Virus record (IMG/VR): IMGVR_UViG_2974563859_000001
Length of the DNA stretch: 64,000 nucleotides
Direction: 5' to 3' (one strand)
Source: a virus
Taxonomy: Duplodnaviria > Heunggongvirae > Uroviricota > Caudoviricetes
Positions 2,901-39,649 of the stretch are shown here, piece by piece. Made by a program: the position numbers and the translations under genes. The notes under the pieces were generated by a model, which was not told the DNA's origin, did not search any database, and worked only from the letters and a program-made list of their open reading frames with translations. Numbering within the stretch: the stretch's first letter is position 1; each line of letters opens with the position of its first letter.

Positions 2901-3045
2901 AAATCACTCCATTTTTTCTTTTATTTTATTAACTTATTTATAATATATTCTTTAATCTTTTTTTATTTTTAGAGAATTAATTACAATAAAACATAATTAT
3001 AATAAAATAAACCCCTCAATAAAAGCAGAACAATATTATTTAATT

Positions 3046-3769: not shown

Positions 3770-4052
3770 TTTCTATCACTCCTATAATATTTAATACTAA
3801 TATAATGTTCCGTATCAAAAAGATTTTCAAGTATATATTATTACTGTAACAATAAGAAACACAAAAACTAGTAATAAATAAGGTAATAAAAGAATGGTTG
3901 GAAAGACAAAAATATTCATCAGGCTACATACCACGAAAAGTGTATTGAACGAATGACAATACCCACCTAGTGATTATAGCAAGATCTTTCACCATTCTCC
4001 GTATCCTTATAAAGAGAAAAAGGATTTTTTAAAATGGAGAGGAGAATACGCT

Positions 4053-5251: not shown

Positions 5252-5413
5252 TTATTCTCTAGTTAGAGAATAAATTGCTTGTATTGCTTCATTCCCAATT
5301 TGACGAGAGTTTCGTCCCATTTGGTCTAACATATTCTTCTTTTCCCATATTAATCGTTCTGCTTCTTCATTAGCTTCTTTACTAAATACTCCACGTAGAG
5401 ATACTGTATCACC
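5252..5413 (-). CDS. RNA polymerase beta-prime N-terminal gene, last exon (GDTVSLRGVFSKEANEEAERLIW...YSLTRE*)
   Basis: Aligns to E. coli beta-prime [22 protein letters not shown]...LGLYYMTR. It has no start codon. It lies directly downstream of a td-like intron 3' end (...gaagattttG|ggtgat). Confidence 0.6.
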   Translation of the reverse strand, partial: GDTVSLRGVFSKEANEEAERLIWEKKNMLDQMGRNSRQIGNEAIQAIYSLTRE

Positions 5414-7303
5414 CAAAATCTTCCAGTAGATTCGCTACATCTACTGCGTTCTCTTATGAACTGCTCTATATTACTATAGAGATGAGACTATATCTTCACA
5501 ATATAATTGTGCCCTCCGTTTCCATTTAAAGAGGAATTATAACCTTATTACGGAATACCTCTACCGCTTGGCTGTACTCTACTCCCTTCCTTCTAACTAG
5601 CGTTATCACAACGATCTGTTAGAGTGGTTTCGATAGTCGTTGAACCTTCATCTTTAAATGAATTAAAGATGCTTGGATGCTGATTGTCCATATAGGATTT
5701 TCCAGCAGTTAAAAGGGTTTTACTACGACAGTAGATTATTATCTTTTATAGGTAAATACTAAATTACCACAATCCCATATTCTTTTAAATCTAGTTTTAT
5801 CCATGATTTCAAATTCAGTACTATCATCACTATATAATTTTGGAAATTTCTTTTTGAGATTAGACTTTCTATAATTAAATCTATGGAATCGTTGAGTTTT
5901 TTCAACGTTAACATACCAATAGTTGGGTTTACTAATATGACTTAATTCAAATTTATTATTGATATAAACATTGCCATCTGACCAGCGTTTATCTGCATAG
6001 GTTATTAATTCTTTCCACTCATAATTTCTCTCGAAGTATTTGAGAAGTTTACTAAAAGCACCTATTACTCTATAGTCCATATCGGTAGCGAATCTTGATA
6101 GTTCAAAAATATTATCAGCACTATTTCTACCTAGGCTTTTTCTAAGTTTACTAAAAGTCATTACCGCTACAAGTTCATCGCCATCTTCTTTTGGAAGCCA
6201 TAAGCCTAATTTAATTGATGACAAATCTTTTCCCTGAATGTGATTTCTTTCTAGGAATTCATTTTTAAAATTGTTATCAATTACTTCTACATAACAATTT
6301 CTAGCGTATATTTTAGTAGAATTATTTAATTTTAGTAGGTGTTTTATTTTTTCTTTTACTATGAGAGGTTTGTTAACCCATTCGTCTTCAAAAATTTGAA
6401 TTAGTCTAATCCCTTTACTATTACATTTTTCTAATTTTTCTAAATGATAGTTTCTTTTCTTCCCCATTTGCTCTGAATGCCAATATAAACCATTAAATTC
6501 AAAAGCAATTTTTTTGGAAGGAATAAATATATCAATCTCTTTACCTTCAAGTAATTTCCTGTCATTACATATGACTTTATCTACAACTAATCCTTTAATA
6601 AAAGAAGATAGTTCTTTTTCCATTTTTGATGAACTTTTAAATGCACAATATGGACATCTATTTCCATTATCAAAGTTTTTAATTGTAACTTCATACTCCT
6701 TATTACAACTATGATGTAACAATCTAATCTTCGTTTTATTATTACGATATTCACCTAATAATGAATACTCATTATTTGTAACTAAGCTAATTTTTCTTTT
6801 AACCTCATCAGTAGTTAGTCTTCTTTTACCAGAACATTGAGGACATCTATTTTTCAAAGCATAATAAGGAGTAGTCTTCCATTCATAATTACAGTCATTA
6901 CATCTGAAAAGTATTTTGGTATCGATATTGATATATTTCTCAAGACTTATAAGTCTTCCATTAGTCTTTTCTTTTAATTCCTTCTTAAACTCATCATTGC
7001 TTTTTAATCTTGATTTACCTTTATTAATATCAGCGCACTGAGGACATCTTCTACCATTATGAAATACATCAGGTCTAACCTCATATATATTTCCACATAA
7101 TTCATGCCTTAATTTGATTTTAGTCTTATTGTTAATATATTCATTGGATAAAACTGTATAGGTATTGTTAGTTAGTAATTTAACTTCTTCTTTGAATTCG
7201 TCCAGTGTCTTTTTATGTGGCATACATTAATACCTCCAAATAATTAATAATTATTTGTTTATTTGACACTGTATTCCCTTAAAAAGAAATAATATTAATT
7301 TTT
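5414..7303 (-). mobile_element. group I intron (phage IA2 / td-like core) carrying homing endonuclease ORF 5739..7223
   Basis: Core blocks AACGACTATCG and GAAGATATAGTCTCA plus the shared 3' tail agagcagttcataagagaacgc...gtagcgaatct. IGS gtcgtagt pairs the exon end actacgaT with a U-G pair at the junction. The junction splits the catalytic motif: D-Y-D | G-D. Confidence 0.6.
5739..7223 (-). CDS. homing endonuclease: N-terminal repeated zinc-finger modules plus C-terminal Vsr/EDxHD-like (DUF559-type) nuclease domain
   Basis: Repeated Y..L.EY.N..TKI...H..C...Y...P..F..G.RCP.C modules. C-terminal IAFEFNGLYWHSE. Paralogous to 7576..8493 and 34288..36051. Confidence 0.65.
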   Translation of the reverse strand: MPHKKTLDEFKEEVKLLTNNTYTVLSNEYINNKTKIKLRHELCGNIYEVRPDVFHNGRRCPQCADINKGKSRLKSNDEFKKELKEKTNGRLISLEKYINIDTKILFRCNDCNYEWKTTPYYALKNRCPQCSGKRRLTTDEVKRKISLVTNNEYSLLGEYRNNKTKIRLLHHSCNKEYEVTIKNFDNGNRCPYCAFKSSSKMEKELSSFIKGLVVDKVICNDRKLLEGKEIDIFIPSKKIAFEFNGLYWHSEQMGKKRNYHLEKLEKCNSKGIRLIQIFEDEWVNKPLIVKEKIKHLLKLNNSTKIYARNCYVEVIDNNFKNEFLERNHIQGKDLSSIKLGLWLPKEDGDELVAVMTFSKLRKSLGRNSADNIFELSRFATDMDYRVIGAFSKLLKYFERNYEWKELITYADKRWSDGNVYINNKFELSHISKPNYWYVNVEKTQRFHRFNYRKSNLKKKFPKLYSDDSTEFEIMDKTRFKRIWDCGNLVFTYKR

Positions 7304-7489
7304 ATCGTAGTCTCCGCCTAAAGCCTTTAAATAACCATTATAAGGAATTACTGTATCAACAAAAAGTTCATCCTCTGCGGGATAGTCAGGGTATATAACA
7401 GGATAATCAGGTAAGTATCTATCTTCCAGCTTTTGAGGTCGTGTTTCCTTTGTTGAAAGAATTCTTATTTTACTTGGATAAATATTCTA
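7304..7489 (-). CDS. RNA polymerase beta-prime N-terminal gene, internal exon (...IPYNGYLKALGGDYD)
   Basis: No ATG/GTG/TTG in frame. Ends in the DYD of the universally conserved NADFDGD motif. The 5' boundary is approximate. Confidence 0.45.
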
Positions 7490-9032
7490 TAGTGATAGGT
7501 AAAGATTTGATTTTATCTCCTCTTTTTCCCCCACTTCACACCCTACGTGCGACTTTCATCGCATAAGGCGTTCCATCAATTTAATAAAAATTTTTTAATA
7601 AGAATTGGTATACTATCGATTGGTGTATCATATTTAATTCTAAGAATTGGTAAATTATATTTCTTACAAAAATCATTTTTAATATTATCATGTTTTTGTA
7701 TTAATTCTAATTTTTTAATACGGTCATTTTCATCGTTACCAAAGATAGGAAGAAAATGTTGTCTACCATCATATTCTATTATAGCATTAAATTCCTCTAC
7801 AAAAAAATCAAAAGGTAAGGGTTTTCTATCTTTACATTCTTTAAAAGTTTTTTGATAGGTATATTCTGTTCCCATATTATTTAAAATATTTTTTATTAAT
7901 AATTCCCCACTACTCATTTTACAGTTTTTACATGAAAATTTATTAGATGTAATATTTTTTAATGAAAATTTATTAATAGTATTACACTCTAAATGTATTA
8001 TTTCTAATGGAGTTACATTATTTATATACTCACCAATCACTTTATACTCATTAGGATTTATTTTGTCTAACTGTTCTTGAACATATTCTTTATTTTTCTT
8101 AATAAGTCCTGAACAGTTAGGACAACGTCTCCCTAGAGATGTAAAATTTCCTGCTTTGACTTCATAAATGAATTTACATTTATTATGACGCATTGTTACC
8201 TTAGAATGATAATTTTTATAATTAGACAAAACAGTATATTCATCTTTTACTAATTCCTTAACCTTATTGATAAATTTTTCTGTAGTTAACTTTTCTTTTG
8301 AATTACAATGAGGACATCCATAACCCTGTAATAAGTTACAAGGTCTTGCCTCAAATTCTTTATTACAAATTTCATGTAATATTAAAATTTTTGTTTTAGA
8401 ATTAATATATTCACCAATTCGTTTGTAACCTTTTAGTATTTGATTTAGTCTTAAATCAAATGAAGTATTATCCAATTTTCTCATTAAAATCACTCCACAT
8501 AACTATTTATTATTATGTTTTGTGATTGTTCGATTATTTTTATTAAACTGACTATGACCCTTCGCTCCAATGGAGTTACCCATCTTCATAACTACTATGG
8601 TCTGCTGACTTTCTATATAAGAGTATCAACTATAATTTCTCTTATATAGAATCTCTGACGTTCCGTAAATGATAGTATAGCTATAACTTAGATGCCTTCT
8701 GCCCTATATAAACTTCTATTGTACCACACTTTACAATCAGGTCGTTCACCAGTACCGTATTACTAAACCCTGAATTTATATAGTATAAAAAGGTTCGTGT
8801 TCCTCATCATATTATAGCACCGCCCACCCTATCTATTAGTATTATAGTACTACTAATATTCAGATGACTTCACCTAACTTCATACAAATATTTTATATAG
8901 TTTAAAATAGATGCATGTAGGAGTATTAGCGACAAGTCTTCAATGAAAATGGTCATATCTTTTACTTGTTCTCATTTACAGTTTAGATTATAAAATCTAC
9001 TCCATTTCACATTAAATGCTTATAGGAGAACG
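7490..9032 (-). other. intervening sequence (putative intron of a different class) containing homing endonuclease ORF 7576..8493
   Basis: The beta-prime frame is broken by a stop at 9033-9035 and resumes at about 7489 without a start codon. The 540-nt segment at 8494-9032 is GC-richer and hairpin-rich. It lacks the td-like core blocks. Confidence 0.3.
7576..8493 (-). CDS. homing endonuclease paralog (zinc-finger modules + EDxHD/Vsr-like, IIEYDGRQH)
   Basis: Same architecture as 5739..7223. Confidence 0.6.
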   Translation of the reverse strand: MILMRKLDNTSFDLRLNQILKGYKRIGEYINSKTKILILHEICNKEFEARPCNLLQGYGCPHCNSKEKLTTEKFINKVKELVKDEYTVLSNYKNYHSKVTMRHNKCKFIYEVKAGNFTSLGRRCPNCSGLIKKNKEYVQEQLDKINPNEYKVIGEYINNVTPLEIIHLECNTINKFSLKNITSNKFSCKNCKMSSGELLIKNILNNMGTEYTYQKTFKECKDRKPLPFDFFVEEFNAIIEYDGRQHFLPIFGNDENDRIKKLELIQKHDNIKNDFCKKYNLPILRIKYDTPIDSIPILIKKFLLN

Positions 9033-10205
9033 TCACATACGATACTGCTCTATTGGATACCTTGTTACATATACATGTTTATCTTTGGTAATATCAACTG
9101 CCGCAATGAATAGAATATCAGTTAATGTAAAGTTACGCCCTAGTTCTTCTCTATATAATGGAATAGGAATTTCATTCCCCTTATCATCTTTAATCATTAA
9201 ACTATTAAAACGACTTTCAATAGACTTAATGTATAATGAGATCATCTTTTTTACTGCTTCTTCAGAGAACTGCTCTCTTATATTACTGATAGTTATCTCT
9301 TTTCCATTATGCTTAAATTTACTAAGTTCTGATTCACGTTCAAGAATATAATCTTGGATATATTTAAGAAAGAATGGATAAAATTCTACCACTAATTGTG
9401 ATAGGGGAATACCAGTCCATCCAAATCTAATAGGGTTATCCTTCCAGCTATTTGACTTAAATCGTGGTGCTGAGATTACACTACGAGTTGCATAATCAAC
9501 AGATTTACCTAAAGAGTTTTGATGGAACATACCATTTTTACCAGCTAAAGAGGATGTAAAATAGTCATAGATATCATATAAAAGAGTCTGAATAGATGAT
9601 TCTGTTATTACTCCCATAAAATCATAATCTTCACCCTTAGAAATTGATTGGCTATACCTAATTAATTTAGCATATTTGTCATTCACTTCATCAACAGCTT
9701 TAATCGTATCATTAGAAGATTTTGAGGGATTATAATCTCTATAAAATGCCGGAATCACTAAATATTTGTCAATAAATATATCATCCTTACCAAGTTTATT
9801 TAATAATGTAAGATAACTTGTTCTTCTATCAGTTCCAGTATTACTAAATTTTAATTGGTCATAAATAGTATAAAAATAGGTAACTCCAGTTTTACCATTA
9901 TCTTTATCTTCAACTAACCTACCGCCCTCAACTTTAAAATATTTTTTTCCAGATAGACAATCTGCAATTTTTCGATCCATAGAGGTTAGAAGCTTATAAA
10001 TTACTGGATGGAGAAATTTTCTCTTTAAGTCTATATAACCAAAAATTATTTTTCTTTCTTTACTTCCCGGATAACCAAAAATACTAGTTGAAAATAATCC
10101 ATCTTCAGTTGGTATATTTCCCATATTAAAGTAAACCGGATTTGTTACTTCTTTACATGCATGAGAAGTAATAAATTTATCTATATTTAATGTATCTATT
10201 TTCAT
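9033..10205 (-). CDS. RNA polymerase beta-prime N-terminal gene, first exon
   Basis: NSLGKSVDYATRSVISAPRF...GIP matches beta-prime NLLGKRVDYSGRSVIVVGP...QCGLP. The frame ends ...VYVTRYPIEQY, matching NRAPTLH. The 3' end is approximate. Confidence 0.65.
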   Translation of the reverse strand: MKIDTLNIDKFITSHACKEVTNPVYFNMGNIPTEDGLFSTSIFGYPGSKERKIIFGYIDLKRKFLHPVIYKLLTSMDRKIADCLSGKKYFKVEGGRLVEDKDNGKTGVTYFYTIYDQLKFSNTGTDRRTSYLTLLNKLGKDDIFIDKYLVIPAFYRDYNPSKSSNDTIKAVDEVNDKYAKLIRYSQSISKGEDYDFMGVITESSIQTLLYDIYDYFTSSLAGKNGMFHQNSLGKSVDYATRSVISAPRFKSNSWKDNPIRFGWTGIPLSQLVVEFYPFFLKYIQDYILERESELSKFKHNGKEITISNIREQFSEEAVKKMISLYIKSIESRFNSLMIKDDKGNEIPIPLYREELGRNFTLTDILFIAAVDITKDKHVYVTRYPIEQYRM

Positions 10206-10293: not shown

Positions 10294-10557
10294 TTATTTA
10301 AATTCAATTTTTTCATTTCCCAATGGCATAATTCTAATACTGTTACTAACTGAGTCGTTTACAATAATACAATCAATTGATCTATTATCTTTTAAATAAA
10401 TTAGTCTTTTAATGAGAGTTGGTTTTTTAGGATCAGACATTTTATTTAATGTATCAAGCTTATTTATTACATCTTTAGTAGTTTCTCCGCATAATAATTC
10501 TGATTTTTTATATCCTTTAACAATAGTTAAATAAAAGTTTTCATTTAAGTATTTCAT
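10294..10557 (-). CDS. hypothetical protein
   Basis: 87-aa ORF. Confidence 0.45.
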   Translation of the reverse strand: MKYLNENFYLTIVKGYKKSELLCGETTKDVINKLDTLNKMSDPKKPTLIKRLIYLKDNRSIDCIIVNDSVSNSIRIMPLGNEKIEFK

Positions 10558-12188: not shown

Positions 12189-14141
12189 TTAGAATGTTAA
12201 GATATTGGTTGGAAATTGTGTCTGTTTAGTTGTTTCTAGTATTTTAAATCCTAAAGATTCTAACATAATCATACCACTCTTAATATGGTCGTTAACCATT
12301 GTTTCAATATCAATAAATGGAGTAACCCACTCAGGTAATTTTTTGATTGATTTTGGTAAACACAGGATTGTAAAACCATACTTAGAAAGATTTTCATTAT
12401 CATAAATAGTTTCTTTAATAGTTTTATAGACATCCATTGGTATTTTACCTGCTAAATCGTTTAAACTCTCAGTTGTCAATTTAATCAGATTTACTTTGGT
12501 AGGTAACACAATTTCATTATCAGGAAATAATTCATTCCAAATAATAGTTCCTCTAATAGATTGCATTGCATAAGGATTAGCATATGATTCAATCTCATTA
12601 GCCTTGGAAGGAAGTGTATAAGTAATTTCTCCATTCATCAATGAATTAGCAATTTCATTTTGTAAATGAACAAAGTTCCCAAATACTTTACTTAAATCAA
12701 TTTTATCAGAAGATAAAATATTTTTATCCAGCATTTCAGTAAAGTAGTCTCTTACATTTTTGTTTACACTTACTTTTCTAATAGCTAAACCCTTAATATC
12801 AAGTTTAGGCTTTTCAAACATACGACCTTCTTGCATGATTAATTTACCAGCATAACTTTTCTTATTACGAGTAAGCATTAGACGTTTATAGAAAAATTCA
12901 TTTTTCATATTGATAATAGGACGTTTTTCAGAAGGAATATTTAGTTCAGATGTCATTTTCCAATAAACATTTTCAATTACCTTTGCCAATAAATATGATG
13001 CAATATTAACAACACTTACTTTACCTTCATCCGTCTCGTCTACATTATCTGGGTAATTTTCTTTTAAGTATTTATAAAATGGATCTAACATTAAGAAGTT
13101 TGAGTCAGTATCTACTACTAATACTGTTTGTCTCTTTTCATTCTCTGCATTTTCATAACGATAGAAACTTAAATGATTATATAAAACCCATTCTTGAATA
13201 TATGTCCATAACATTTCTAGTGAATCTTTAATATCTTTAGGTGGATCATTTGGATCTAAAAATTCTTTATTAATTACTTTTCCTAAAAGATTAGAGATCT
13301 CATTATTACCTAAGAATTCATAAAGATTATTTTTATAATAAATTTTGTTAAGTGTTTGTTGATCCATTCTCTCAATAATATCTGAAAGAACCTTTACATC
13401 TGAATCATTTCTATTTCTCCATTTACGTAGGAGATATTGTAATAATTCTCCGCTTTCAATATTTCTATTAATAATGTGTGTATATACATATTTCTGTTCT
13501 TGAATATTATTAATGTATAGAAGAACGTCATTTAGATTTTCAAAGTGAAAGTTATTAGACATAAAATTCTCAAATGCATTTACAGCAGTCGTAATAATAA
13601 TTACACCACTATATGTAATACTTGGACCAAAGTTTTGATTAAAGAAGATACTATTTTTCTCAACTGTTGCTCCATAAAATGAGTTAGCAAGAAGTTTAAA
13701 GGTTTTTTGCATTAAATCTAAATTATTATATTCCGTTCTATCTTCATCATTAACATGCTCAAACATTTCTTTTTTTACTTTCTTACGTGATACCAGCAAG
13801 TAATCAACCATATCAGAAAGTAAATTTACACCTTCATTATGTTTTCTATAGAATGCTCCGTAACCAGTAATTATTGGTTTCTTTTCTTCTAACCATTCAG
13901 TAACACTTAATAAATTTTTTACACTTTTTTGCTCACCATCATTAAATACAACATTTTTACCTTGAATAGTACTATTAATTTCCTTGTCTAAAAATTCTTC
14001 AATCTCTTCTTCTCTAATATCAGGAAATGAAAGAAGTAATTGTTTCTTTGCCTGTTCTTTATATTTTTCTAAGAAATTTGGATATGAATTTACATAATCT
14101 TTAGTTTCCTGCAAATTTTTCTCCTCCCAAGTGTTTATCAA
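12189..14141 (-). CDS. family B DNA polymerase, C-terminal fragment (motif B to C-terminus)
   Basis: KLLANSFYG (motif B) and VLVVDTDS (motif C). Motif A is absent. Split polymerase gene. Confidence 0.8.
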   Translation of the reverse strand: MINTWEEKNLQETKDYVNSYPNFLEKYKEQAKKQLLLSFPDIREEEIEEFLDKEINSTIQGKNVVFNDGEQKSVKNLLSVTEWLEEKKPIITGYGAFYRKHNEGVNLLSDMVDYLLVSRKKVKKEMFEHVNDEDRTEYNNLDLMQKTFKLLANSFYGATVEKNSIFFNQNFGPSITYSGVIIITTAVNAFENFMSNNFHFENLNDVLLYINNIQEQKYVYTHIINRNIESGELLQYLLRKWRNRNDSDVKVLSDIIERMDQQTLNKIYYKNNLYEFLGNNEISNLLGKVINKEFLDPNDPPKDIKDSLEMLWTYIQEWVLYNHLSFYRYENAENEKRQTVLVVDTDSNFLMLDPFYKYLKENYPDNVDETDEGKVSVVNIASYLLAKVIENVYWKMTSELNIPSEKRPIINMKNEFFYKRLMLTRNKKSYAGKLIMQEGRMFEKPKLDIKGLAIRKVSVNKNVRDYFTEMLDKNILSSDKIDLSKVFGNFVHLQNEIANSLMNGEITYTLPSKANEIESYANPYAMQSIRGTIIWNELFPDNEIVLPTKVNLIKLTTESLNDLAGKIPMDVYKTIKETIYDNENLSKYGFTILCLPKSIKKLPEWVTPFIDIETMVNDHIKSGMIMLESLGFKILETTKQTQFPTNILTF

Positions 14142-14301
14142 TTTTTAGTTATTATTTCTCTTAAAAATATCTAAGATTAAAAATAACTAATCAATATAAT
14201 AATATATTTTTAAAAAGGTTTTTATTTAAACAATTAAATATAAAAGTATTTATTTCAAATAAACATTTAATTATATTAATCTGAAAGGAAAGTGATTTTT
14301 A

Positions 14302-14601
14302 ATGTCATCATTCTTCAACTTACTCACTGAGTCAAATACTAGTGATATTATTCTTGAGCAAACTTTTCAAGAAGCTAACGTAGTTCGTATGGATAAACAA
14401 ACTCTTAAAAAACGTTTGCTTACTCAGGCTACACTATTAGCGGCTAAAGATGCTAACGATCCAATTTATCAAAAATATGTTAAAGCGGCTAAACAAAAAC
14501 GCCATTTCCGTTCTCAAATTCAACAAAAATATGGTGCTAAAGGTCAAGCTAAAGTCCGTGAGTTCCTTAAACAGCAACAACAAGCTAAACAATCTCGTTA
14601 A
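14302..14601 (+). CDS. hypothetical basic protein
   Basis: 99 aa. Confidence 0.45.
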   Translation: MSSFFNLLTESNTSDIILEQTFQEANVVRMDKQTLKKRLLTQATLLAAKDANDPIYQKYVKAAKQKRHFRSQIQQKYGAKGQAKVREFLKQQQQAKQSR

Positions 14602-14778
14602 TTTTCGGATCATAGAAATATGAATGAGAAAGATTACTATTAATGTAATCAGATTTGAAAGTGAAGAATAATTTTAAATTATCCTTAAGATCTTATTAAA
14701 GATCTTAAGGATACTTATATGCCGTTTACATATAATACTTAGTTATTTTTAAGATATTAAAAAACATAAAAAGTGATG

Positions 14779-14793
14779 TAAATATATATTATT
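14779..14793 (+). promoter_or_regulatory. AAATATATATTATTA promoter-like motif
   Basis: 54 nt upstream of the TTG start at 14847; recurs at four further sites (26385, 27393, 50888 and 38728 on the minus strand). Confidence 0.45.
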
Positions 14794-14846
14794 AACTTGT
14801 ATTTTTCCATGTTTCATGTTATAATTAATCAACGGAGGGATCATCA

Positions 14847-16742
14847 TTGGAAAAGACTTATAATTTAAATGATATTCTATTATCAAATGAGTATGAAAAA
14901 ATTAAAGAGGATATCAAAGAAGAAATAATTAATGATATGGCATCTAAGAAAGTAAAGTATAGTAATACTTCTGAATTTGCTAAAAATGACTTTCTTAAAG
15001 ATGAATTCATTGATTTAGTTGTTGATGGGGAAACATATGAAATTACATATGGAAATCTAATCACATTATTAATTGTTGCAAGACCATTTAATCACTTTAA
15101 AGTACCAATGACTGAAGATTTATTATTTGATCTATCTGATTTAAAAGAATACCAAAATTATTATACTACATTGCTAGAACATTTTAGTTACAGTAATGAA
15201 ATTAAATCTATTATTAAAGATGTTATTAGTGAGTTAGCAATTTTCTCTGGGGATATTAACGTAACATTTGGTAATACAGTTTCTATTAAATCACTTATTG
15301 ATTTGGGAAATAAAGTAAAGAGATTTAGAGAACTATTACATTATCGTTTACCAAATGATGAGGCATTAGAGTTTAATGATATTGAGGCTATTATTAAAAA
15401 GAATTTAGATGAAATTATGAAAATTCTTTCTGAAACTGATAATATGCTAAGATATTACATTGATTCAGGTGCTGGTATTAACTCAAAACAATTTGGTCAA
15501 GTATTATCATTAGTAGGTTCTAAACCGGATTTATTTGGTAAAATTATTCCTTATCCAATTAATACTAGTTTCCTAAGAGGATTAGATGTACGGTCTTTCT
15601 ATATTAATGCTTTAGGGGCAAGAAAAGCTTTAATCACAAACTATCAACAAGTAAGAAACTCTGGCTATCTAACAAGAAAAATTAGTATGTTATTGATGGA
15701 TACAAAATTAATTGATTTAGATGATTGTGGAAGCCATGAAAACAACTATCTTTCAATTAATGTTGAGAATAAAGATGTTCTAAAAAGATTCTCTAAAAGA
15801 AGTTATTTAAATAATAATGGTGAATTAGTTGAAATTGATATTAATGATGAAAGTCTAATTGGACAGGTAATAAAAATTCCTTCTCCAACTACTTGTGCAT
15901 CTAATGAAGGCGTTTGTCGTAAATGTTATGGTAAATTGTTTGATATCAATAAAGATTTAAATATTGGCATGATTGCAGTTCTACTATTAACAGATCCATT
16001 AACTCAGCGTTTATTAAGTGCAAAACACTTACTAGAGACTCGGTCTTCTAAGATCGATTGGGGAACTAATTTTGAAGAGAACTTTATCGTAAACAGAAAC
16101 TTAATTTATCCTAAAGTTTATAATGGAACGGTTATTATTAAAGAAGATGATTTTAAAGAAGATGAGGAAACAGAAGAACAAGTATTTGATACATTTACTT
16201 TAAAAAGTGGTAATAGATTTATTTCTATTAGTTCACCAATGAGATTATTCCTAAATAAAGACCTTAAGAAACAACTTGATGAAAGCTTTTATAATATAGA
16301 AGAAATGCAATTTGAAATTCCATTAAATAAGCTTGATGAAGGCGATAGTTTTGCAACATTCATCATGGATAATAACGAATTATCAAAACCATTAAGGGAA
16401 ATTAAAGATCTTATTGAAACTAATAAATATATTAAAGATCATAATGTTAATGAAGTGGTAAACTATTTTATTTACCTCTTAAATGAATCAGGTATCAATA
16501 TTCAGTCTGTTCATTCAGAGTTAATCATTAGAGAAATGATGAAACTAGATGATTCAGATAGAACACAATTTAAAAATGATAAAATGCCGGATTATGAAAT
16601 CTTCCGTATTACAGATGCTAATTTAAAGGGAGATAGTCTATCAAGATCATTATTATTTGAGCAAGTTAAGAAACAGCTAACTACACTAGATTATGATACA
16701 TTTAATAAAACAAAATCTTCAATTTTAGATAAACTACTTTAA
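14847..16742 (+). CDS. RNA polymerase beta-prime C-terminal gene (trigger-loop region), TTG start
   Basis: CASNEGVCRKCYGKLF...IGMIAVLLLTDPLTQRLLSAKH matches beta-prime C..C..CYGRDLA...[21 protein letters not shown]. RBS ggaggga upstream. Confidence 0.75.
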   Translation: MEKTYNLNDILLSNEYEKIKEDIKEEIINDMASKKVKYSNTSEFAKNDFLKDEFIDLVVDGETYEITYGNLITLLIVARPFNHFKVPMTEDLLFDLSDLKEYQNYYTTLLEHFSYSNEIKSIIKDVISELAIFSGDINVTFGNTVSIKSLIDLGNKVKRFRELLHYRLPNDEALEFNDIEAIIKKNLDEIMKILSETDNMLRYYIDSGAGINSKQFGQVLSLVGSKPDLFGKIIPYPINTSFLRGLDVRSFYINALGARKALITNYQQVRNSGYLTRKISMLLMDTKLIDLDDCGSHENNYLSINVENKDVLKRFSKRSYLNNNGELVEIDINDESLIGQVIKIPSPTTCASNEGVCRKCYGKLFDINKDLNIGMIAVLLLTDPLTQRLLSAKHLLETRSSKIDWGTNFEENFIVNRNLIYPKVYNGTVIIKEDDFKEDEETEEQVFDTFTLKSGNRFISISSPMRLFLNKDLKKQLDESFYNIEEMQFEIPLNKLDEGDSFATFIMDNNELSKPLREIKDLIETNKYIKDHNVNEVVNYFIYLLNESGINIQSVHSELIIREMMKLDDSDRTQFKNDKMPDYEIFRITDANLKGDSLSRSLLFEQVKKQLTTLDYDTFNKTKSSILDKLL

Positions 16743-17471: not shown

Positions 17472-18905
17472 ATGATAAGAGTACAACCAACTAGAATTCT
17501 TGTTGAAAATTATAAAGCTGGTGAAAGTGATAAACTAGAGAAATCACTATCTGTATGGGATAAAACTATTTTTCAATATACCTTTTCAGCATTTTTAATT
17601 GATGAAGATACAAATCAATTATTAATTCCTGGAGGTTATGATTACACTAAATTAAAAAAGTGTTTTCCAAGAGATAAGATAGTTAATGAAAGATTAAATG
17701 TTGATCCTTATAATAAAGTAACCTTTTCACTAAAATATCCTCCTAGAGATTCAATACAACAAGATGCAATTAAATTTCTTTTACAAACAAATGATTCACA
17801 GAAATTCTTATGTTTACCAACAGGTAAAGGAAAGACATACTGTTCTATTAACTACGTATTTAAGTCTAAGAAATTACCAATGGTATTTGTAGACCAAGAG
17901 AACTTAATGGAGCAATGGAAGAAGAGTATTCTAAATTTTACGTCAGTAAAAGAGGAAGAGATATTTCTTATTAGTGGTAGAAATAGTATTGATAAGTTAA
18001 TGAAAATGAAAAAGAAAGAGCTAAAGCAATATAAGTGGTTCATTGCTATTCATAAAACTATTGGTAACTATATTGACGATAATCCAGATAATATTGATAA
18101 GTTAATGAAACACTTAGGCATAGGTGTTAAATTGTATGATGAAGCACATGTCGAATATAAAAATATATTCTATATTGATTCATTAACTAATACTGAAAGT
18201 GTTTATATAACAGCTACTCCATCCCGAAGTGATCCAATTGAAAATAAAGTTTATCAAAATATTTTCAATGATGTTCCAATGTATAAAGTTAAAGAAGATG
18301 AAATTGTTAATTATCACAATATAATTATTGTGAAATTTAACAGCAAACCTAGTATTGATGATCAAGCCAAGATGAAATCAAAATACGGTTTTGATACAAA
18401 TAGATGGTGTAAATATATTCTGGATAATATTAAATATGAAGAATTTATGAATCATATTACAAAAAATATTATTGAAAGAGTAAATAAGAATTTTGATAAA
18501 AAAACAGTACTATTATTTCATACAATGGCTGGCAATGATGTTATTATTAATGATCTTAAAGAAACTTACCCAAATATAGAAATTGGAAGATATAATTCCA
18601 GTATTAAGGACAAGGATAAACGCTTAAAGGAATTAGAAAAAGATATAATAGTAACAACAGATGTATCATTTGGGAAAGCTATTGATGTTAAAGGATTAGA
18701 GATACTTATAAATACGGTTCCATTTGGATCAAAAGTTCTAACTGAGCAGTTATTAGGTAGATTAAGGGAGATTGAAGGAAAAGAAGTATGGTATATTGAT
18801 CTTGTAGATATTGGTTTTGATAGTTGTAAAAAACAATTAAAACAGAGACAAAATATATATAATAAAAAAGCAAAGAGAATTTATGAATTAGACTTGACAA
18901 AATAG
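17472..18905 (+). CDS. superfamily-2 helicase (DEAH box)
   Basis: LPTGKGKT (Walker A) and LYDEAHVEY (DEAH). Confidence 0.6.
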   Translation: MIRVQPTRILVENYKAGESDKLEKSLSVWDKTIFQYTFSAFLIDEDTNQLLIPGGYDYTKLKKCFPRDKIVNERLNVDPYNKVTFSLKYPPRDSIQQDAIKFLLQTNDSQKFLCLPTGKGKTYCSINYVFKSKKLPMVFVDQENLMEQWKKSILNFTSVKEEEIFLISGRNSIDKLMKMKKKELKQYKWFIAIHKTIGNYIDDNPDNIDKLMKHLGIGVKLYDEAHVEYKNIFYIDSLTNTESVYITATPSRSDPIENKVYQNIFNDVPMYKVKEDEIVNYHNIIIVKFNSKPSIDDQAKMKSKYGFDTNRWCKYILDNIKYEEFMNHITKNIIERVNKNFDKKTVLLFHTMAGNDVIINDLKETYPNIEIGRYNSSIKDKDKRLKELEKDIIVTTDVSFGKAIDVKGLEILINTVPFGSKVLTEQLLGRLREIEGKEVWYIDLVDIGFDSCKKQLKQRQNIYNKKAKRIYELDLTK

Positions 18906-19884: not shown

Positions 19885-20431
19885 AAATGAAATTTCATTG
19901 GGATTAAGTGTTAAAATCACAAACAAAAATAAGAATGCAAAGATTATTAGTCTTTGCATTTCTGATCTTGGAGGTAAAAACTTATTTTATGCAGAATTTA
20001 ATGATTATTCTGAGCACTTTTTAGATTATTATGCTAAGAATGATATCATTCCTAATTTATTATTTAATGAGAAAAATGATTTTATTATAGAGAGTAACAA
20101 TCATTTTCACATCAAATCTAATAGTGATATAATAAGAAAAGAAGTTTCAAAATGGCTGGCAAACTATTATCTAAAACATAAGAAGAAGATTAAGTTTATT
20201 ATTGATGATAAACAATTTAGCTGGCTGTTCTTTTCAGAATTAATTGATTATGAAATTTTTCCTAAATTTATGTTATCCAATGATACAATTGATTTAGATT
20301 CTCTTCTAGAGTTCCTAAATATTAATCTATCAGGAACATCATTAGAGAAAAAATCCAATGCTATTATTAGCGCCAAAGGGAACATTAGTATTTGGAAGCA
20401 ACTATTTGATGTATATCAAAATAAAAGATAA
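19874..20431 (+). CDS. hypothetical protein
   Basis: ORF; the start may be 19859 or 19874. Confidence 0.4.
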   Translation: MQSKNEISLGLSVKITNKNKNAKIISLCISDLGGKNLFYAEFNDYSEHFLDYYAKNDIIPNLLFNEKNDFIIESNNHFHIKSNSDIIRKEVSKWLANYYLKHKKKIKFIIDDKQFSWLFFSELIDYEIFPKFMLSNDTIDLDSLLEFLNINLSGTSLEKKSNAIISAKGNISIWKQLFDVYQNKR

Positions 20432-20456
20432 ATTTATATTATAATAGTGTCTTTAA

Positions 20457-20645
20457 ATGAAAAGGAGGAGTAGCATGAATACTTATTATGATTATTCAAA
20501 TCAGACTAAGAAGACGTTAAAAACTAATGAAAGAAGTCTCTCTAGGAAAGAAAGGAGGGAATTAGCAAAACTAGAAGAAAGAGAAAGGAGGCTTTATGAT
20601 AAGAAGCAGAGGGAAATTGCAAAACGATTGGGGTTCATTAAATGA
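20457..20645 (+). CDS. small basic protein
   Basis: ORF; RBS aaaggagg lies upstream of the internal Met at MNTYY. Confidence 0.4.
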   Translation: MKRRSSMNTYYDYSNQTKKTLKTNERSLSRKERRELAKLEERERRLYDKKQREIAKRLGFIK

Positions 20646-26340: not shown

Positions 26341-26384
26341 ATAAAAAAATTAAAAATTTCAGAGACGTATTAAAATTTTAGATG

Positions 26385-26399
26385 AAATATATATTATTA
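26385..26399 (+). promoter_or_regulatory. AAATATATATTATTA promoter-like motif
   Basis: 42 nt upstream of the ATG at 26441. Confidence 0.45.
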
Positions 26400-26440
26400 A
26401 AGTGAAGAGGATGTTATATTTATTAAAGGAGAGGTAAATT

Positions 26441-27364
26441 ATGATTTGTGAGAAAGAAAGAGAGATCACAGTAGAAGAGAGAATTAGGAATGTAAGAAAA
26501 TTAAATGTTAGTAGAGAAGTATTGGAAGAGATGGTAAAGAGACACTATAGAAAAGTTCCTGTAGATTTAATTCTAAAGAATACATTTATGGTTCCATTAT
26601 ATACTGAAGCTTTACCAAAATGTATTATATATCGAAAAGACAGATATCCTAAAAATCGTTATGTTGGTCTTAAAGAGACTATTAAGAAACAACATTTTCA
26701 GATGTATCATATTATATCAAATATTAAAGAAGAAGAAAGAACTGTCGCTGAACAACAATTTTTGAATTATATAGATAGTAAGGACTTCTATAGTCTTCAG
26801 ATGAAACTTCTCACCATATTTATTTCCACATCAGCAATGACTAATCCAAATACTAACTATCTCCAAAACTTCAGTAATAGCGTACTTAAAGTAATAAATA
26901 AGATTAAGAATGAAAGAAAAATTGAATTTATTGGACAAGCAGAAACAAAATTTAATTTTTATTTCTCTGATCATTTTCAATTTGATAGAATGATACATCG
27001 TGGTATTCCCTATCATAATCTAGAAATGGCATTAACGCCAATCGTTCAGTTTGAAAACTATAATAAATTTAAGAAAGGGACAGTGATAGCATCACAACTA
27101 AACTTAGGTGATACTGAAATTAGTCCTATTATCCTAGTAGGTGTTACTAAGAATGAAGATAAAGAAATTGAATTCACAATTATTACAGTACTTTATAATC
27201 AGGATAAAAATTATGTAATAAAAGATTGTGATGATTTTATATGTAGATATTATCATGAAGAACAGAAAAGATATAGAAGTATTAATTATAAAAGTAATAA
27301 GAAAGTATTTAGAAAATATTTCCCTACTATTAAGGTAGTAGACGAGGAGGAAGGCATTTATTAA
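26441..27364 (+). CDS. hypothetical protein
   Basis: 307 aa, RBS aaaggagagg. Confidence 0.55.
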   Translation: MICEKEREITVEERIRNVRKLNVSREVLEEMVKRHYRKVPVDLILKNTFMVPLYTEALPKCIIYRKDRYPKNRYVGLKETIKKQHFQMYHIISNIKEEERTVAEQQFLNYIDSKDFYSLQMKLLTIFISTSAMTNPNTNYLQNFSNSVLKVINKIKNERKIEFIGQAETKFNFYFSDHFQFDRMIHRGIPYHNLEMALTPIVQFENYNKFKKGTVIASQLNLGDTEISPIILVGVTKNEDKEIEFTIITVLYNQDKNYVIKDCDDFICRYYHEEQKRYRSINYKSNKKVFRKYFPTIKVVDEEEGIY

Positions 27365-27392: not shown

Positions 27393-27406
27393 AAATATAT
27401 ATTATA
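27393..27406 (+). promoter_or_regulatory. AAATATATATTATA promoter-like motif
   Basis: 33 nt upstream of the ATG at 27439. Confidence 0.4.
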
Positions 27407-27438: not shown

Positions 27439-27789
27439 ATGGAAATTGTTGTAAAAGCATTAAATGTTTCTTCAGAAGTACATGAAGTGGAAAAATTATT
27501 TAGACTCTACGATAATGGGTATAAAAATGTTCTTTATGGTAATTATCAAAATGATGTGTGTTTGCTATCTAAAGATGTTATTCCAAAGGATATAATTAAA
27601 AATATTAATGATAATATACTAGAAGAAATTTATTTGGAATTACTTTGGTTGAGTAAATCTCCTGTTTTTATAATTAATAAACTTAAATATACAGAAGTTT
27701 TAAGTTATGATGATGATGGCAATTTAATCGTAAAAGCTAACAATGATAGTTTAAAAGATATTAAATTTTATGTAGAAAAAGGTGAATAA
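27439..27789 (+). CDS. hypothetical protein, paralog A1
   Basis: MEIVVKALNVSSEVHEVEKLF...; paralogous to the next gene. Confidence 0.55.
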   Translation: MEIVVKALNVSSEVHEVEKLFRLYDNGYKNVLYGNYQNDVCLLSKDVIPKDIIKNINDNILEEIYLELLWLSKSPVFIINKLKYTEVLSYDDDGNLIVKANNDSLKDIKFYVEKGE

Positions 27790-36120: not shown

Positions 36121-37251
36121 TTATTCTGAATATATTTTACCAATTTCTCTCTTAAGATGAACTAAAGCTTTATTTAAATACAATGCATTGTAAATATCAA
36201 CGGTCATGCGTGAAACGATACTTAATGGACTCATAATGGCTTCAATATTCTCATCTGGATCATTCTCACTAAAAGGCTCTTGATCTTTAGGAATAACATC
36301 AGATACAATTGTTTTAAGTGCTGTATAATACGTAATCTTATCTCCAATACCAAGTTCATCATCATACTCAATATAAATCTCAATGAGTAGTCCATCTACC
36401 TCAGTACCTTTAATTTTCTCACCTGATTGCTTTTGAATAGGTTTAAGATTAACAGAAGTCAGATCATTAGTAACAGACTTAATCTTATCTTCTTTCTTCT
36501 TACTATCTTTAATATAGTTCTTCAGAATCTTTTGTACTGAAGGAGAAAACTCACTGATATCTTTATTGTAGTACATTACAACATCTACAATCTTACCAGT
36601 ATATTTAGAACTTACTTTGTTCTTAGATAACTCATTAATAGTCTCATTAAAGTCATCTCCTAGTTTATCTAAGAGTTGGTTGAGTGATTTATCTTCAAAA
36701 GAGTTTTCAAAGATAATCAGTGGATCACCAGTTTTAACCATATCGCCTTTCTTAACAATAAAGTCAATGTTTGAGTTAACTCCAAGAGCAAGTTCTTTCT
36801 TCATAGTAATCTTAGTAGATAGGTCTTGAGATAAGCTTTCTGTGATAATACTACTATCTTCATATGTGTAATCTGCGCTTGCTAGTGCTACTTTACAAAG
36901 CTTCCCTGTAGTATACGTGATATCATCTTTCTTATCGCCAAGGAAATAACTTGGATTCTTCGCTAGGATATCATCTTTTTTGAATTTCTCTCCTACTTTG
37001 ATAATGAGTTCTTTACGATTGGAAATATAGAAACCACCATTACTGTTCTTACTCATATGCTCGGAGAGATCAATGACGTCTTTCTTACCATCATTATAAC
37101 GAACGACAGCTAACTCATGTTCTTCATCTATGGACTCTAGAACTCCATCTTTTTTTGCTCTAAACACAAAGTCGTCACTTAGAATGTAAGCGACAGTCTT
37201 CTCTACACCACTACCAAATAGAGGTTTAGATTGCTTTGTGGTAGGAATGAT
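36121..37251 (-). CDS. RNA polymerase beta N-terminal gene, exon 5 (IIPTTKQSKPLFGSG...PSRM...)
   Basis: Aligns to E. coli beta AVPTLRADKPLVGTG...GDKMAGRHGNKGV...GVPSRMN. The frame is open upstream of the GTG that the ORF track used as a start. Confidence 0.65.
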   Translation of the reverse strand: MIPTTKQSKPLFGSGVEKTVAYILSDDFVFRAKKDGVLESIDEEHELAVVRYNDGKKDVIDLSEHMSKNSNGGFYISNRKELIIKVGEKFKKDDILAKNPSYFLGDKKDDITYTTGKLCKVALASADYTYEDSSIITESLSQDLSTKITMKKELALGVNSNIDFIVKKGDMVKTGDPLIIFENSFEDKSLNQLLDKLGDDFNETINELSKNKVSSKYTGKIVDVVMYYNKDISEFSPSVQKILKNYIKDSKKKEDKIKSVTNDLTSVNLKPIQKQSGEKIKGTEVDGLLIEIYIEYDDELGIGDKITYYTALKTIVSDVIPKDQEPFSENDPDENIEAIMSPLSIVSRMTVDIYNALYLNKALVHLKREIGKIYSE

Positions 37252-37611
37252 CGTTAACTTCCATTAGATTCGCTACGTCTAATGCGTTCTCTTATGAACT
37301 GCTCTATATTTCTATAGAGACGAGACTATATCACTATCCTTATCTATTAAGGATAACCCCCATTTCCATTTAAGGGATTCTCACCCACTCCAATCGCTTG
37401 AGCCGTACTCCTATTGCGGAATTTCACCGCTACTCACAATCCTAAGATTGCTTTCGGATAGTCGTTGAACCTTCATTGTTATTTATAACAATGCTTGGAT
37501 GCTGATTGTCCATATATCCTTTAGATTGTTACACTTTGGTACTAAAGGCTTTAGGATTTTCCAGCAGTTAAAGGGTTTTGCTAGCAATATTACTACTACT
37601 AGGCACGAATC
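37252..37611 (-). mobile_element. group I intron (td-like, no ORF) in the beta gene
   Basis: ctttaactgctgg, caacgactatcc, gatatagtctcg and the tail ...gcgaatctaatggaagttaacG. Confidence 0.55.
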
Positions 37612-37788
37612 ATGCTTTTGCTGCGTTGTTTGCATTCCAACGCGCGGTGGGTCGGCATGACGAGCAGTAAAGGAGTTTAATAACTCTGCCGGACCATAGA
37701 TATTTGTCGTATTATTTTTTGTATTAGGATTGGTGTCTAAGAATCCTCGTGTGTTTTTGAATGCTGGATCAAAAGTTAACTGTCTAAC
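37612..37788 (-). CDS. RNA polymerase beta gene, exon 4 (VRQLTFDPAFKNTRGFLDT...FTARHADPPRVGMQTTQQKH)
   Basis: GC-rich island. GFLDT matches GFLET. ARHADPPRVGMQTTQQ matches EHDDANRALMGANMQRQ. Confidence 0.55.
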
Positions 37789-38837
37789 CCATTACCTTCA
37801 TATAGGTTCGCTACACCTATACCGTTCTCTTATGAACTGCTCTATGTTACCATAGAGATGAGACTATATCTTTATCTAGTCAAAAAAAAAGAAAGGAGAT
37901 GACTAGATATCTCCCATTTCCATTTAAGGGATTCTCACCCACTCCAATCGCTTGAGCCGTACTCCTATTGTGTGTTAACCACTAAAGGATAGTCGTTGAA
38001 CGTTACTCTCGTTATAATTAAAAATAATTTATAAAACCGTTTTTCTCAGCAATTTCTTTTCTAAAAGTAATTGCTAGTTCTTTAGCTTTTTCAAAACCAT
38101 ATTTATTAACTGCAAATGTTTTAATAAATTTTTTATGATTAACACGGATTTCAGATTCCCATCTATTTTTCTTTTTAGAATATCTTATTCCTTTAATTCC
38201 AGAAGTATTATCGTTTCTTAGTGATGTATTTCTATTATTCATCATTTGAGAAACCTCACGCAAATTACTTTTTCTATTATTTAAACTATTTCTATCTATA
38301 TGATCAATTACATTATTATTATCTTTAATATCCATTAGGTATCTATGAAGCTTTCCACCTGAATTACTTGAAATATAAAATGAATTATTTCTTTTAGACC
38401 AGATAGCTCTCCAAACATGCTTATTTATTTTATCAATATCTTCAATATCAATTTGAGATTTTACGATACCATATGTTTTTGAAAAAGTAACTAATAATGC
38501 ATGATCATCTAATACTTCAATAAAATTATATGCTCTTTTTCCTTCTTTTAATGTTTTCATAGCTATACGCTCACTATAATCTCCATATAAAACTTCTGAA
38601 TAATGTGCAAGGGAATTTGATTTCTTTTCTTTATTATAGAAACTTACTCTCCATAATTTTTGTTCTTTTAGATATATTATTTTATTTTTTTCCATAATAG
38701 TAGCTCTCCTTTTTAACTTACTACTATTATAATATATATTTAACGAGAGTCTTCGATACGGATTGTCCTATTATTAGGAGTTTCCCGTAGTTAGAGAGAT
38801 TTTATCATTATATATCACTATATAAGGGGGCAGTTTA
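37789..38837 (-). mobile_element. group I intron with HNH-AP2 homing endonuclease (38018..38695) inserted in a stem-loop
   Basis: Stem ctctcgtt/aacgagag flanks the ORF. The td-like 3' core lies at 37789-38010. Confidence 0.5.
38018..38695 (-). CDS. HNH homing endonuclease with C-terminal AP2 DNA-binding domain
   Basis: IDHIDRNSLNNRKSNLREVS (HNH) and GIRYSKKKNRWESEIRVNHKK (AP2). RBS aaggagagc. Promoter-like motif on the minus strand at 38728-38741. Confidence 0.7.
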   Translation of the reverse strand: MEKNKIIYLKEQKLWRVSFYNKEKKSNSLAHYSEVLYGDYSERIAMKTLKEGKRAYNFIEVLDDHALLVTFSKTYGIVKSQIDIEDIDKINKHVWRAIWSKRNNSFYISSNSGGKLHRYLMDIKDNNNVIDHIDRNSLNNRKSNLREVSQMMNNRNTSLRNDNTSGIKGIRYSKKKNRWESEIRVNHKKFIKTFAVNKYGFEKAKELAITFRKEIAEKNGFINYF

Positions 38838-38852
38838 ATTCACCCCAACTTT
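38838..38852 (-). CDS. RNA polymerase beta gene, proposed 15-nt micro-exon (KVGVN)
   Basis: Lies between a td-like intron 3' end (...ggaagataatG) and the next intron, which starts taa after an exon T. It restores the conserved (I/V)GL(I/V)N segment. Confidence 0.35.
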
Positions 38853-39187
38853 CATTATCTTCCACTAGATTCGCTACATCTAATGCGTTCTCTTATGAAC
38901 TGCTTCATGTTACCATGAAGATGAGACTATATCATCATCCTATTAGGATGCCTCCCATTTCCAACTCCAATCGCTTGAGTTGTACTCTACTCCCTTCCTT
39001 CTAACTAGCGTTATCACAACGATCTGTTAGAGTGGTTTCGATAGTCGTTGAACCTTACTCTAATGAGTCTTGGATGCTGATTGTCCTTAAAGGATTTTCC
39101 AGCAGTTAAAGAGGTTTACTTATAATATTTCTATTATAAGGGACTATTATAAATCTTGTCTGGGAATTCAAGAATTATAATAATTCA
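38853..39187 (-). mobile_element. group I intron (td-like, no ORF)
   Basis: Complete core: ctttaactgctgg, caacgactatcg, gatatagtctca and the tail gtagcgaatctagtgg. Confidence 0.5.
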
Positions 39188-39265
39188 ATCCGAGTCGGGT
39201 GTTGACATTGCCATGATTCCACGCATACTAGGGTCATAAGCCCGAATATCAGTTGTATAAGCATC
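39188..39265 (-). CDS. RNA polymerase beta gene, proposed 78-nt micro-exon (DAYTTDIRAYDPSMRGIMAMSTPDSD)
   Basis: STPDS matches the universal ETPEG motif. Flanked by a td-like 3' end (...gaaggaaaacG) and a 5' exon-T|tga junction. Confidence 0.45.
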
Positions 39266-39649
39266 CGTTTTCCTTCATATAGGTTCGCTACACCTATACC
39301 GTTCCTTAGAACTGCTCTAAGTTTCCCTAGAGACGAGACTATATCATCACTTAAAAGTGCCTCCCATTTCCAGCCTCAATCGCTTAGACTGTACTCTACT
39401 CCCTTCCACTAACTAGCATTATTGTAATGATCTGTTAGAGTGGTTTCGATAGTCGTTGAACCTTTACCTTATTACAAATAATTTGTAACTTAGGTACTTG
39501 GTTGCTTATGATTACCCAATCCTTTAAATTTTTACCATACCTGAATTGTTATATTCAGCCATCTATTATGTTTCCATATAGATTTGGTATTAAAGGCTCT
39601 AAGGGTTTTCCAGCAGTTAAAGAGGTTTTAATTGGACTAAAACACTTTA
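39266..39649 (-). mobile_element. group I intron (td-like, no ORF)
   Basis: Begins taaagtgttttaGTCCAATtaaaacctctttaactgctgg. IGS gtccaa pairs the exon end ttggaT. Confidence 0.55.

Follow-up and report, generated by a model that had tools for sequence, protein, structure and literature searches.

Early promoters in a 64-kb stretch of the Bacillus phage PBS1 genome and a second upstream box in a subset of them

The early-promoter motif and its setting in PBS1

The 64,000-nucleotide stretch of DNA analysed here (the window; IMG/VR record IMGVR_UViG_2974563859_000001) matches the genome of Bacillus phage PBS1 (MF360957.1, positions 23153-87152) letter for letter (100%), and it carries several copies of a short AT-rich motif upstream of genes, one of them before the gene for the C-terminal part of an RNA polymerase β′ subunit. 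The 6-kb stretch around that copy is 100% identical to PBS1 and 99.7% identical to phage AR9, and these two Bacillus jumbo phages form one species, Takahashivirus PBS1. In their genomes deoxyuridine (dU) replaces thymidine, so that each T given below is dU in the real genome, and each phage has genes for two split RNA polymerases of the multisubunit type, of which one is packaged in the virion and the other is made after infection. Genes for split β and β′ subunits of the virion enzyme lie within the window (g189 and g145; gene numbers are those of AR9), a trait of phages with early promoters of the phiKZ type. Both genes are interrupted by introns, those of g145 bearing homing endonucleases, and both are late, with 0 fragments per kilobase of transcript per million mapped reads (FPKM) at 5 min after infection in AR9 (AR9 Table S4). 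In the PBS1 record these two intron-split genes appear as separate fragments or as 'hypothetical protein' and there are no promoter features; the AR9 record (KU878088) joins the exons and annotates promoters, both of which can be transferred to PBS1. The G+C content across the window ranges from 23 to 37%.

The conserved unit of the motif is the 13-mer AAATATATATTAT, which occurs in exact form five times in the window, four times on the plus strand (P154, P169, P170 and P200) and once on the minus strand (P190; coordinates in Table 1). The longer 15-mer AAATATATATTATTA is exact at two places only, 14780-14794 and 26385-26399. When up to two mismatches were allowed, the 15-mer gave 16 matches against 6.5 +/- 2.5 in shuffled sequence, a count that none of 100 shuffles reached, and the 13-mer with at most one mismatch and a purine 6 nt downstream gave 9 matches against 1.6 +/- 1.2 (again 0 of 100 shuffles). 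All five exact 13-mers fall in the 12.8% of the window that is non-coding in the PBS1 annotation (Fisher p = 3.5e-5), and all five are co-oriented with the downstream gene, whose start codon lies 27-78 nt past the predicted start site. An earlier note on this DNA, made from the sequence alone, had taken equal frequency inside coding sequences as a sign against function; none of the five exact copies is coding, and because every exact 13-mer in the AR9 genome is a mapped early start site (see below), this comparison favours function.

The motif is in fact the already published early promoter of AR9/PBS1, and its recognition in the window is a rediscovery. A consensus of AAATATATATTAT-(6N)-G+1 was derived from 41 early start sites of AR9, which were mapped by differential RNA sequencing (dRNA-seq), confirmed by primer extension for a random selection, and active at 5 min (Lavysh et al. 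2017 mBio, PMC5312081). Eight of the start sites in Table S2 of that study fall in the window, belonging to g152, g154, g157, g159, g169, g170, g190 and g200. The 13-mer is exact at five of these promoters and has one mismatch at three, and the start nucleotide 6 nt after it is G at seven and A at P190, in agreement with the published sites. We rebuilt the AR9 genome from its GenBank record to check the Table S2 rows: 37 of 39 stand at their stated coordinates, and the other two, both for g226, are swapped with each other. On the two strands of this genome, 24 of 24 exact 13-mers coincide with mapped early start sites, as do 10 of the 17 one-mismatch copies. In AR9, the eight genes downstream of the window promoters are expressed at 17-1344 FPKM at 5 min in Table S4 (g154 33, g159 1344, g169 258, g170 120, g190 291, g200 1250), and neighbouring late genes at about 0. 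In their anatomy, these early promoters consist of a near-invariant AAATATATATTAT at -19 to -7, of which TATATTAT spans -14 to -7; the start nucleotide, a G and in rare cases an A, comes exactly 6 nt later.

Most of what the earlier note had read from the letters was borne out by the AR9 data, including its proposal of a phage-specific promoter class. The motif is present at the places that it gave, although two of its coordinates, 14779 and 50888, are off by one (14780 and 50889). The distance of 33-54 nt to the start codon, counted from the 3′ end of the 13-mer, holds at four of the five exact sites and fails at 50889, where it is 84 nt. Of the two weaker variants that it listed, the minus-strand AAAAATATATTAT is P152, and the plus-strand AAGTATATATTAT at 3829-3841 corresponds to no mapped promoter. 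Six of the eight published promoters in the window were thereby found; the two that it missed, P157 and P159, are one-mismatch copies that reach into the 3′ ends of coding sequences, and the early-promoter class is therefore not strictly intergenic. Five of the seven sites in the earlier note, those before g152, g154, g169, g170 and g200, bear a 13-nt 'early promoter' feature in KU878088, which also has a 'promoter' feature before g159; the g190 promoter is in Table S2 and lacks a feature in the record, and the site at 3829 is in neither. Counted over the eight window promoters, 'early promoter' or 'promoter' features are present on seven. The motif, its start sites, their timing and the assignment to the virion polymerase were thus already known for AR9 from work of 2016-2017. 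Besides the 2017 study, the AR9 genome paper (Lavysh et al. 2016 Virology) reportedly describes these early promoters.

Table 1. Promoters, promoter-like sites and virion RNA polymerase genes in the window (TSS, transcription start site with AR9 coordinate; UTR, untranslated region, in nt).
Feature	Coordinates	Strand	Sequence elements	Start	AR9 annotation and mapping	Downstream gene or context
Candidate early promoter, unlisted	2933-2952	-	AAGAATATATTAT-aaataa-G; 13-mer 2940-2952			Intergenic; predicted start 35 nt before Zn-finger gene g141 (2755-2898)
Weak variant	3810-3848	+	Box CCGTATCAAAA 3810-3820, 8-nt spacer, AAGTATATATTAT 3829-3841	A (predicted)		g144
Virion RNA polymerase β′ N-terminal gene (g145)	5252-10205	-			'virion RNAP subunit', joined coding sequence
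Early promoter P152	14192-14211	-	AAAAATATATTAT 14199-14211, one mismatch	G 14192	'early promoter' feature; TSS 127150(-)	Start 78 nt before DNA polymerase catalytic subunit gene (12189-14114)
Early promoter P154	14780-14799	+	AAATATATATTAT 14780-14792	G 14799	'early promoter' feature; Table S2 TSS 127757(+), UTR 48	Start 48 nt before TTG start of non-virion RNA polymerase β′ C-terminal gene (14847-16742)
Early promoter P157	18851-18870	+	AAATATATATAAT, 13-mer 18851-18863	G 18870	Table S2 g157 TSS 131828(+), UTR 124	Within 3′ end of helicase gene; 124 nt before NrnB-like gene (18994)
Early promoter P159	20430-20449	+	AAATTTATATTAT, 13-mer 20430-20442	G 20447 and 20449	'promoter' feature; TSS 133407(+)	Overlaps stop codon of 3′-5′ exonuclease gene; 26 nt before gene 20475-20645
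Early promoter P169, two-part	26365-26404	+	Box ACGTATTAAAA 26365-26375, 9-nt spacer, 13-mer 26385-26397	G 26404	'early promoter' feature; TSS 139425	Start 37 nt before gene 26441-27364
Early promoter P170	27393-27412	+	Exact 13-mer 27393-27405	G 27412	'early promoter' feature; TSS 140433	Start 27 nt before gene 27439-27789
Virion RNA polymerase β N-terminal gene (g189)	36121-42412	-			'virion RNAP subunit', 6 pieces joined
Early promoter P190, two-part	38722-38761	-	Box CCGTATCGAAG 38751-38761, 9-nt spacer, exact 13-mer 38729-38741	A 38722	Table S2 TSS 152042(-)	Start 27 nt before HNH homing endonuclease gene (38018-38695), intronic in the late virion RNA polymerase β gene
Early promoter P200	50889-50908	+	Exact 13-mer 50889-50901	G 50908	'early promoter' feature; TSS 164233	Start 78 nt before gene 50986-51753

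Several of these promoters are documented individually. The Table S2 entry for P154 was verified against the AR9 sequence. The primer extension product of g152 is already seen at 5 min in AR9, and P159 gives the tallest dRNA-seq step of all early promoters (Table S2, PMC5312081). P200 has a late promoter in tandem upstream of it, with a late g200 TSS at 164186 in the part of Table S3 covered here.

Proposed recognition of the motif by the virion RNA polymerase

The motif copies are very probably the early promoters of PBS1/AR9, and we infer that the 13-mer is recognised by the virion RNA polymerase, either alone or together with a co-injected factor. The earlier note pointed to the same reader, and so did the AR9 authors, for whom the mapping, the timing and the behaviour in chloramphenicol together indicate that an injected virion polymerase reads the early promoters (PMC5312081): transcripts of P087 and P104, both outside the window, still accumulate in the presence of this drug, and protein synthesis is therefore not needed for them. 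The virion-packaged enzyme, which includes the products of g145 and g189, would enter the cell together with the DNA and, with no need for newly made protein, initiate at the early promoters in a matter of minutes. The resulting early transcripts would encode the DNA polymerase (from P152), a subunit of the non-virion polymerase (from P154), nucleases and many small proteins, and the non-virion polymerase would next read the unrelated late promoters (AACA-N6-TA). These late promoters, AACA-(6N)-T-A/G, occur in the same phage and window (for example before g153, g142 and g189) and are likewise phage-specific and dU-dependent; they differ from the early class in their unrelated sequence, in their late timing, and in being read via the template strand by the non-virion polymerase with its specificity subunit gp226.

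Comparison with related phages bears on this assignment. Between AR9 and PBS1 the early promoters have the same sequence, position, orientation and downstream genes, and nothing material differs. With the β′ C-terminal subunit as query, a search of protein sequences gave matches in BpSp (66% identity), Listeria phage LPJP1, a group of Staphylococcus jumbo phages (~33-34%) and phiR1-37. BpSp has 19 exact 13-mers in diverged flanks, 18 of them with G at +1 and one before the β′ orthologue, and a 42-kb sample of Staphylococcus phage S6 (L016) has three exact AAATATATATTAT-N6-G copies plus a one-mismatch copy directly before the β′ orthologue (sites 2282, 7282, 19792 and 26213), so that the motif stands before the non-virion β′ C-terminal gene in PBS1 (P154), BpSp and S6 alike. 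The S6 polymerase subunit is 33% identical and the motif is kept; promoter specificity is far better conserved than enzyme sequence. Conservation of the motif in Staphylococcus jumbo phages has already been published for MarsHill, in which a motif 'nearly identical' to that of AR9, with TATATTAT, lies upstream of 29 genes (Korn et al., bioRxiv 10.1101/2020.12.14.422802); the early promoters of MarsHill and other Staphylococcus jumbo phages are predicted ones.

The resemblance to the early promoters of phiKZ-like phages, which the earlier note had also pointed out, is close. The phiKZ core TATATTAC differs from TATATTAT by a single base, the shared pattern being TATATTAY. Both groups have a highly conserved AT-rich element around -10 and start transcription 6 nt beyond it. 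In both, the motif precedes early genes, those for subunits of the non-virion polymerase among them, and the phages carry a split multisubunit RNA polymerase in the virion. The groups differ in the flanks and further upstream, where the AR9 motif extends 5′ as AAATA, and the early motifs of 201phi2-1, OBP and N1M2 are longer. AR9-like phages, unlike phiKZ-like phages, have dU-DNA and lie outside the Chimalliviridae.

One rival to the virion enzyme is the host polymerase, which could treat the motif as a sigma-A promoter of the extended -10 kind by reading TATTAT at -12 to -7 and starting 6-7 nt downstream. The virion enzyme is itself a homologue of bacterial RNA polymerase, and the hexamer TATTAT (5/6 to TATAAT, with the A at -11 and the T at -7 that are typical of sigma-A and sigma-70 -10 elements) stands at -12 to -7 in 37 of 39 AR9 early promoters, with TATAAT itself in the other two (2/39). 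The claim that the motif does not fit sigma-A accordingly holds for the TTGACA-like -35, which is missing, and fails for the -10. A 4/6 match to TTGACA at a spacer of 16-18 nt is found in 13 of 39 promoters as compared with ~13% of random genome positions; for the eight window promoters the best TTGACA match is 2-4/6, and the overall distribution is barely above that of random positions. There is no TG at -15/-14, and the plus strand at 14780 was not picked up by a sigma-70-type promoter scan. Sigma-A would need far less than the invariance observed from -19 to -7, and a single change at position 3 of the 13-mer (AACTATATATTAT before g057) leaves no start site (PMC5312081). Moreover, the genome consists of dU-DNA, Staphylococcus phages share the 13-mer, and the AR9 system is without a sigma homologue. 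Rifampin lowers the AR9 yield ~10-fold in strain 168, an effect that the authors blame on cell killing by the drug; infection nevertheless goes on in its presence and shows no effect of the drug in a rifampin-resistant host, related PBS2 is reported to be insensitive, and by the authors' conclusion the host polymerase is dispensable for infection (PMC5312081). With a -10-like hexamer in place, no -35 and no plus-strand scan call, we rejected host sigma-A as the main explanation and regard it as very improbable. That the motif recurs merely by chance, as functionless low-complexity sequence in an AT-rich genome of 27% G+C, is scarcely credible. Two-mismatch copies do resemble the AT-rich background: the window holds as many as 34, of which 27 are coding, and chance alone would give 6.5 matches to the 15-mer at up to two mismatches. 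But exact and one-mismatch copies lie far above the shuffles, are intergenic and co-oriented with downstream genes, are followed by a purine at a constant distance of 6 nt, correspond to mapped start sites in every exact case genome-wide, and persist in diverged phages whose flanks are not conserved. The counts already refute this explanation.

A different division of labour, in which a separate DNA-binding specificity factor, delivered by the virion or supplied by the host, does most of the reading of the 13-mer and recruits the virion polymerase, much as VETF acts at poxvirus early promoters, so that the β/β′ fragments would not make the contact, seems to us rather unlikely. The virion polymerase has no known sigma homologue, a point that the AR9 authors left open (PMC5312081), a review of 2026 still considers co-injected helpers possible, and the spaced upstream box that a subset of promoters carries (see below) would suit a two-contact mode of recognition. 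No candidate for such a factor is known, however, and the dedicated fifth subunit of the non-virion enzyme, gp226, is part of the enzyme itself; an integral specificity subunit is hence equally possible for the virion polymerase. Such a factor refines the assignment to the virion polymerase more than it contradicts it. Some facts do weigh against that assignment, in addition to the -10-like hexamer and the loss of yield in rifampin. All of the transcript data come from AR9 and none from PBS1. Exonuclease treatment, which serves to mark primary transcripts, gave poor enrichment of the early 5′ ends of AR9 (PMC5312081). No virion RNA polymerase had been purified according to a review of 2020, and we found no in vitro transcription by a virion polymerase in the AR9 and jumbo-phage literature consulted.

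A second upstream box and the kinetics of early transcripts

Alignment of the Table S2 sequences revealed that 10 of the 39 AR9/PBS1 promoters, those of g047, g048, g069, g108, g120, g169, g190, g234, g253 and g292, carry the sequence (C)CGTATYAAAA at -39 to -29. This 11-nt box is always separated from the 13-mer by exactly 9 unconserved bases; at g292 it spans the arbitrary ends of the AR9 record and is contiguous in PBS1. The chance of finding CGTAT at one fixed position in 10 of 39 sequences is ~2e-22. Only 8 occurrences of CCGTATYAAA exist on the two strands of the 251-kb AR9 genome, six of them at early promoters with the 9-nt spacer, one at 3810 with an 8-nt spacer, and one inside g147. 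Eight promoters of BpSp are built as (C/A)(C/T)GTATYRAA-N9-13-mer, and the genes downstream of them have no detectable homology to the box-driven genes of AR9. About a quarter of the early promoters of AR9/PBS1 and of the diverged relative BpSp are thus two-part, with a box that can be written overall as (C/A)(C/T)GTAT(T/C)(A/G)AA at -39 to -30.

Promoters with the box also differ in kinetics, which we measured as the ratio of 5-min to 20-min FPKM of the first gene downstream of each promoter (AR9 Table S4). The median ratio was 1.16 for box promoters as against 0.21 for the others (Mann-Whitney p = 3e-5). Late promoters that boost the genes without a box are probably not the cause of this difference, which is also seen against only those non-box promoters whose 13-mer is perfect (p = 2e-4) and against seven 'pure early' non-box genes, defined by a 40-min level no higher than the 20-min level (p = 0.002). 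Eight genes were singled out as 'pre-early' in the AR9 study (g048, g109, g111, g120, g169, g235, g289 and g292), and RNA stability or polymerase affinity were the only reasons that its authors suggested for their behaviour (PMC5312081). All eight lie at or downstream of a box promoter. One of them, g169, is transcribed from P169 in the window, at 258, 166 and 136 FPKM at 5, 20 and 40 min.

We suggest, tentatively and at somewhat less than even confidence, that the early promoters form two architectural classes, in which the box would act as a further element for recognition and define an immediate-early programme of its own. The box could serve as a -35-like contact for the virion polymerase or for a co-injected factor, or it could be an operator for an early repressor that would shut box promoters off. 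Two other origins of the box were considered and rejected. As the -10 (CGTA) of a promoter for an extracytoplasmic function (ECF) sigma factor it should be preceded by an AAC-type -35, and none is conserved upstream in 18 aligned promoters. Recent duplication of a promoter cassette is countered by spacers and flanks that all differ around a fixed spacer length, and by non-homologous downstream genes; given the differing spacers and flanks, the fixed spacing of the box is no relic of duplication. The box was not found in the text of the 2017 mBio paper (as 'CGTATT'), in a literature search for CCGTATT with AR9, or within the 13-nt GenBank features, sources that do not cover the 2016 genome paper. 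The CCGTAT box is not part of the listed phiKZ-type motifs, and none was seen at the four clear promoters in the 42-kb sample of S6; it may be specific to Takahashivirus.

Upstream conservation is not confined to promoters with the box. In AR9, 32 of the 39 early promoters have A at -31 and -30, and T is the preferred base at -34/-33, giving a TTAAA-like patch; T is found at -1 in 29 of 39. This patch suggests that the promoters in general share a weak element upstream, akin to the conservation near -30 in phiKZ and 201phi2-1, whose early promoters are conserved around -10, -20 and -30.

Neighbouring sites and implications

Two further sites near the start of the window resemble early promoters (Table 1). 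The 13-mer variant AAGTATATATTAT at 3829 is that of the active promoter P120, and a similar AAGTATATATTAT site occupies the syntenic position in BpSp (162285+). In PBS1 it has one mismatch; AR9 has AAGTATGTATTAT at this place, with two. The site is absent from the mapped AR9 early promoters of Table S2, the gene downstream, g144, is late (0.43 FPKM at 5 min in AR9), and the opposite strand, according to the part of Table S3 covered, carries a late promoter mapped for g142 (GATACGG-AACA-ttatatt-A). The 3829 site is unlikely to act as an early promoter, at least in AR9, and may be a decayed or a PBS1-specific promoter.

The minus-strand site at 2940-2952, by comparison, is probably an early promoter that has escaped listing. 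Its AAGAATATATTAT is the 13-mer variant of the published P083, and the sequence from 2933 to 2952 is identical in AR9, where g141 reaches 310 FPKM at 5 min and the upstream, co-oriented g142 only 0.76. Because g141 is expressed early and g142 is silent, an early promoter must sit between them. No g141 TSS appears in Table S2, nor in the part of Table S3 covered.

Two other features of the window were noticed. The interval from g153, a late gene with very high expression, to P154 contains at 14680-14713 a 15-bp stem without mismatches that closes a loop of 4 nt (TATCCTTAAGATCTT-ATTA-AAGATCTTAAGGATA, -19.4 kcal/mol), with no T-tract after it; this putative hairpin may be a terminator or a processing site for the transcript of the non-virion polymerase. 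A simple scan found no intrinsic terminators in 14100-14900. The minus-strand gene g148 (10294-10557) is at 611 FPKM at 5 min while g149, just upstream in the same operon, is at 28, and no 13-mer with up to two mismatches lies near g148, which suggests either that a promoter has gone unrecognised here or that RNA processing or differences in stability are at work.

For annotation, the gain is that eight promoters and one candidate can be transferred to the PBS1 records, which now lack promoter features. For the question of how a sigma-less, split, virion-packaged multisubunit RNA polymerase locates its promoters, the two-part subclass, with its strict spacing and its own kinetics, offers a modest lead in the form of concrete templates for in vitro work. 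If the proposed role of the box is true, it would provide a sequence-based explanation of the 'pre-early' transcripts.

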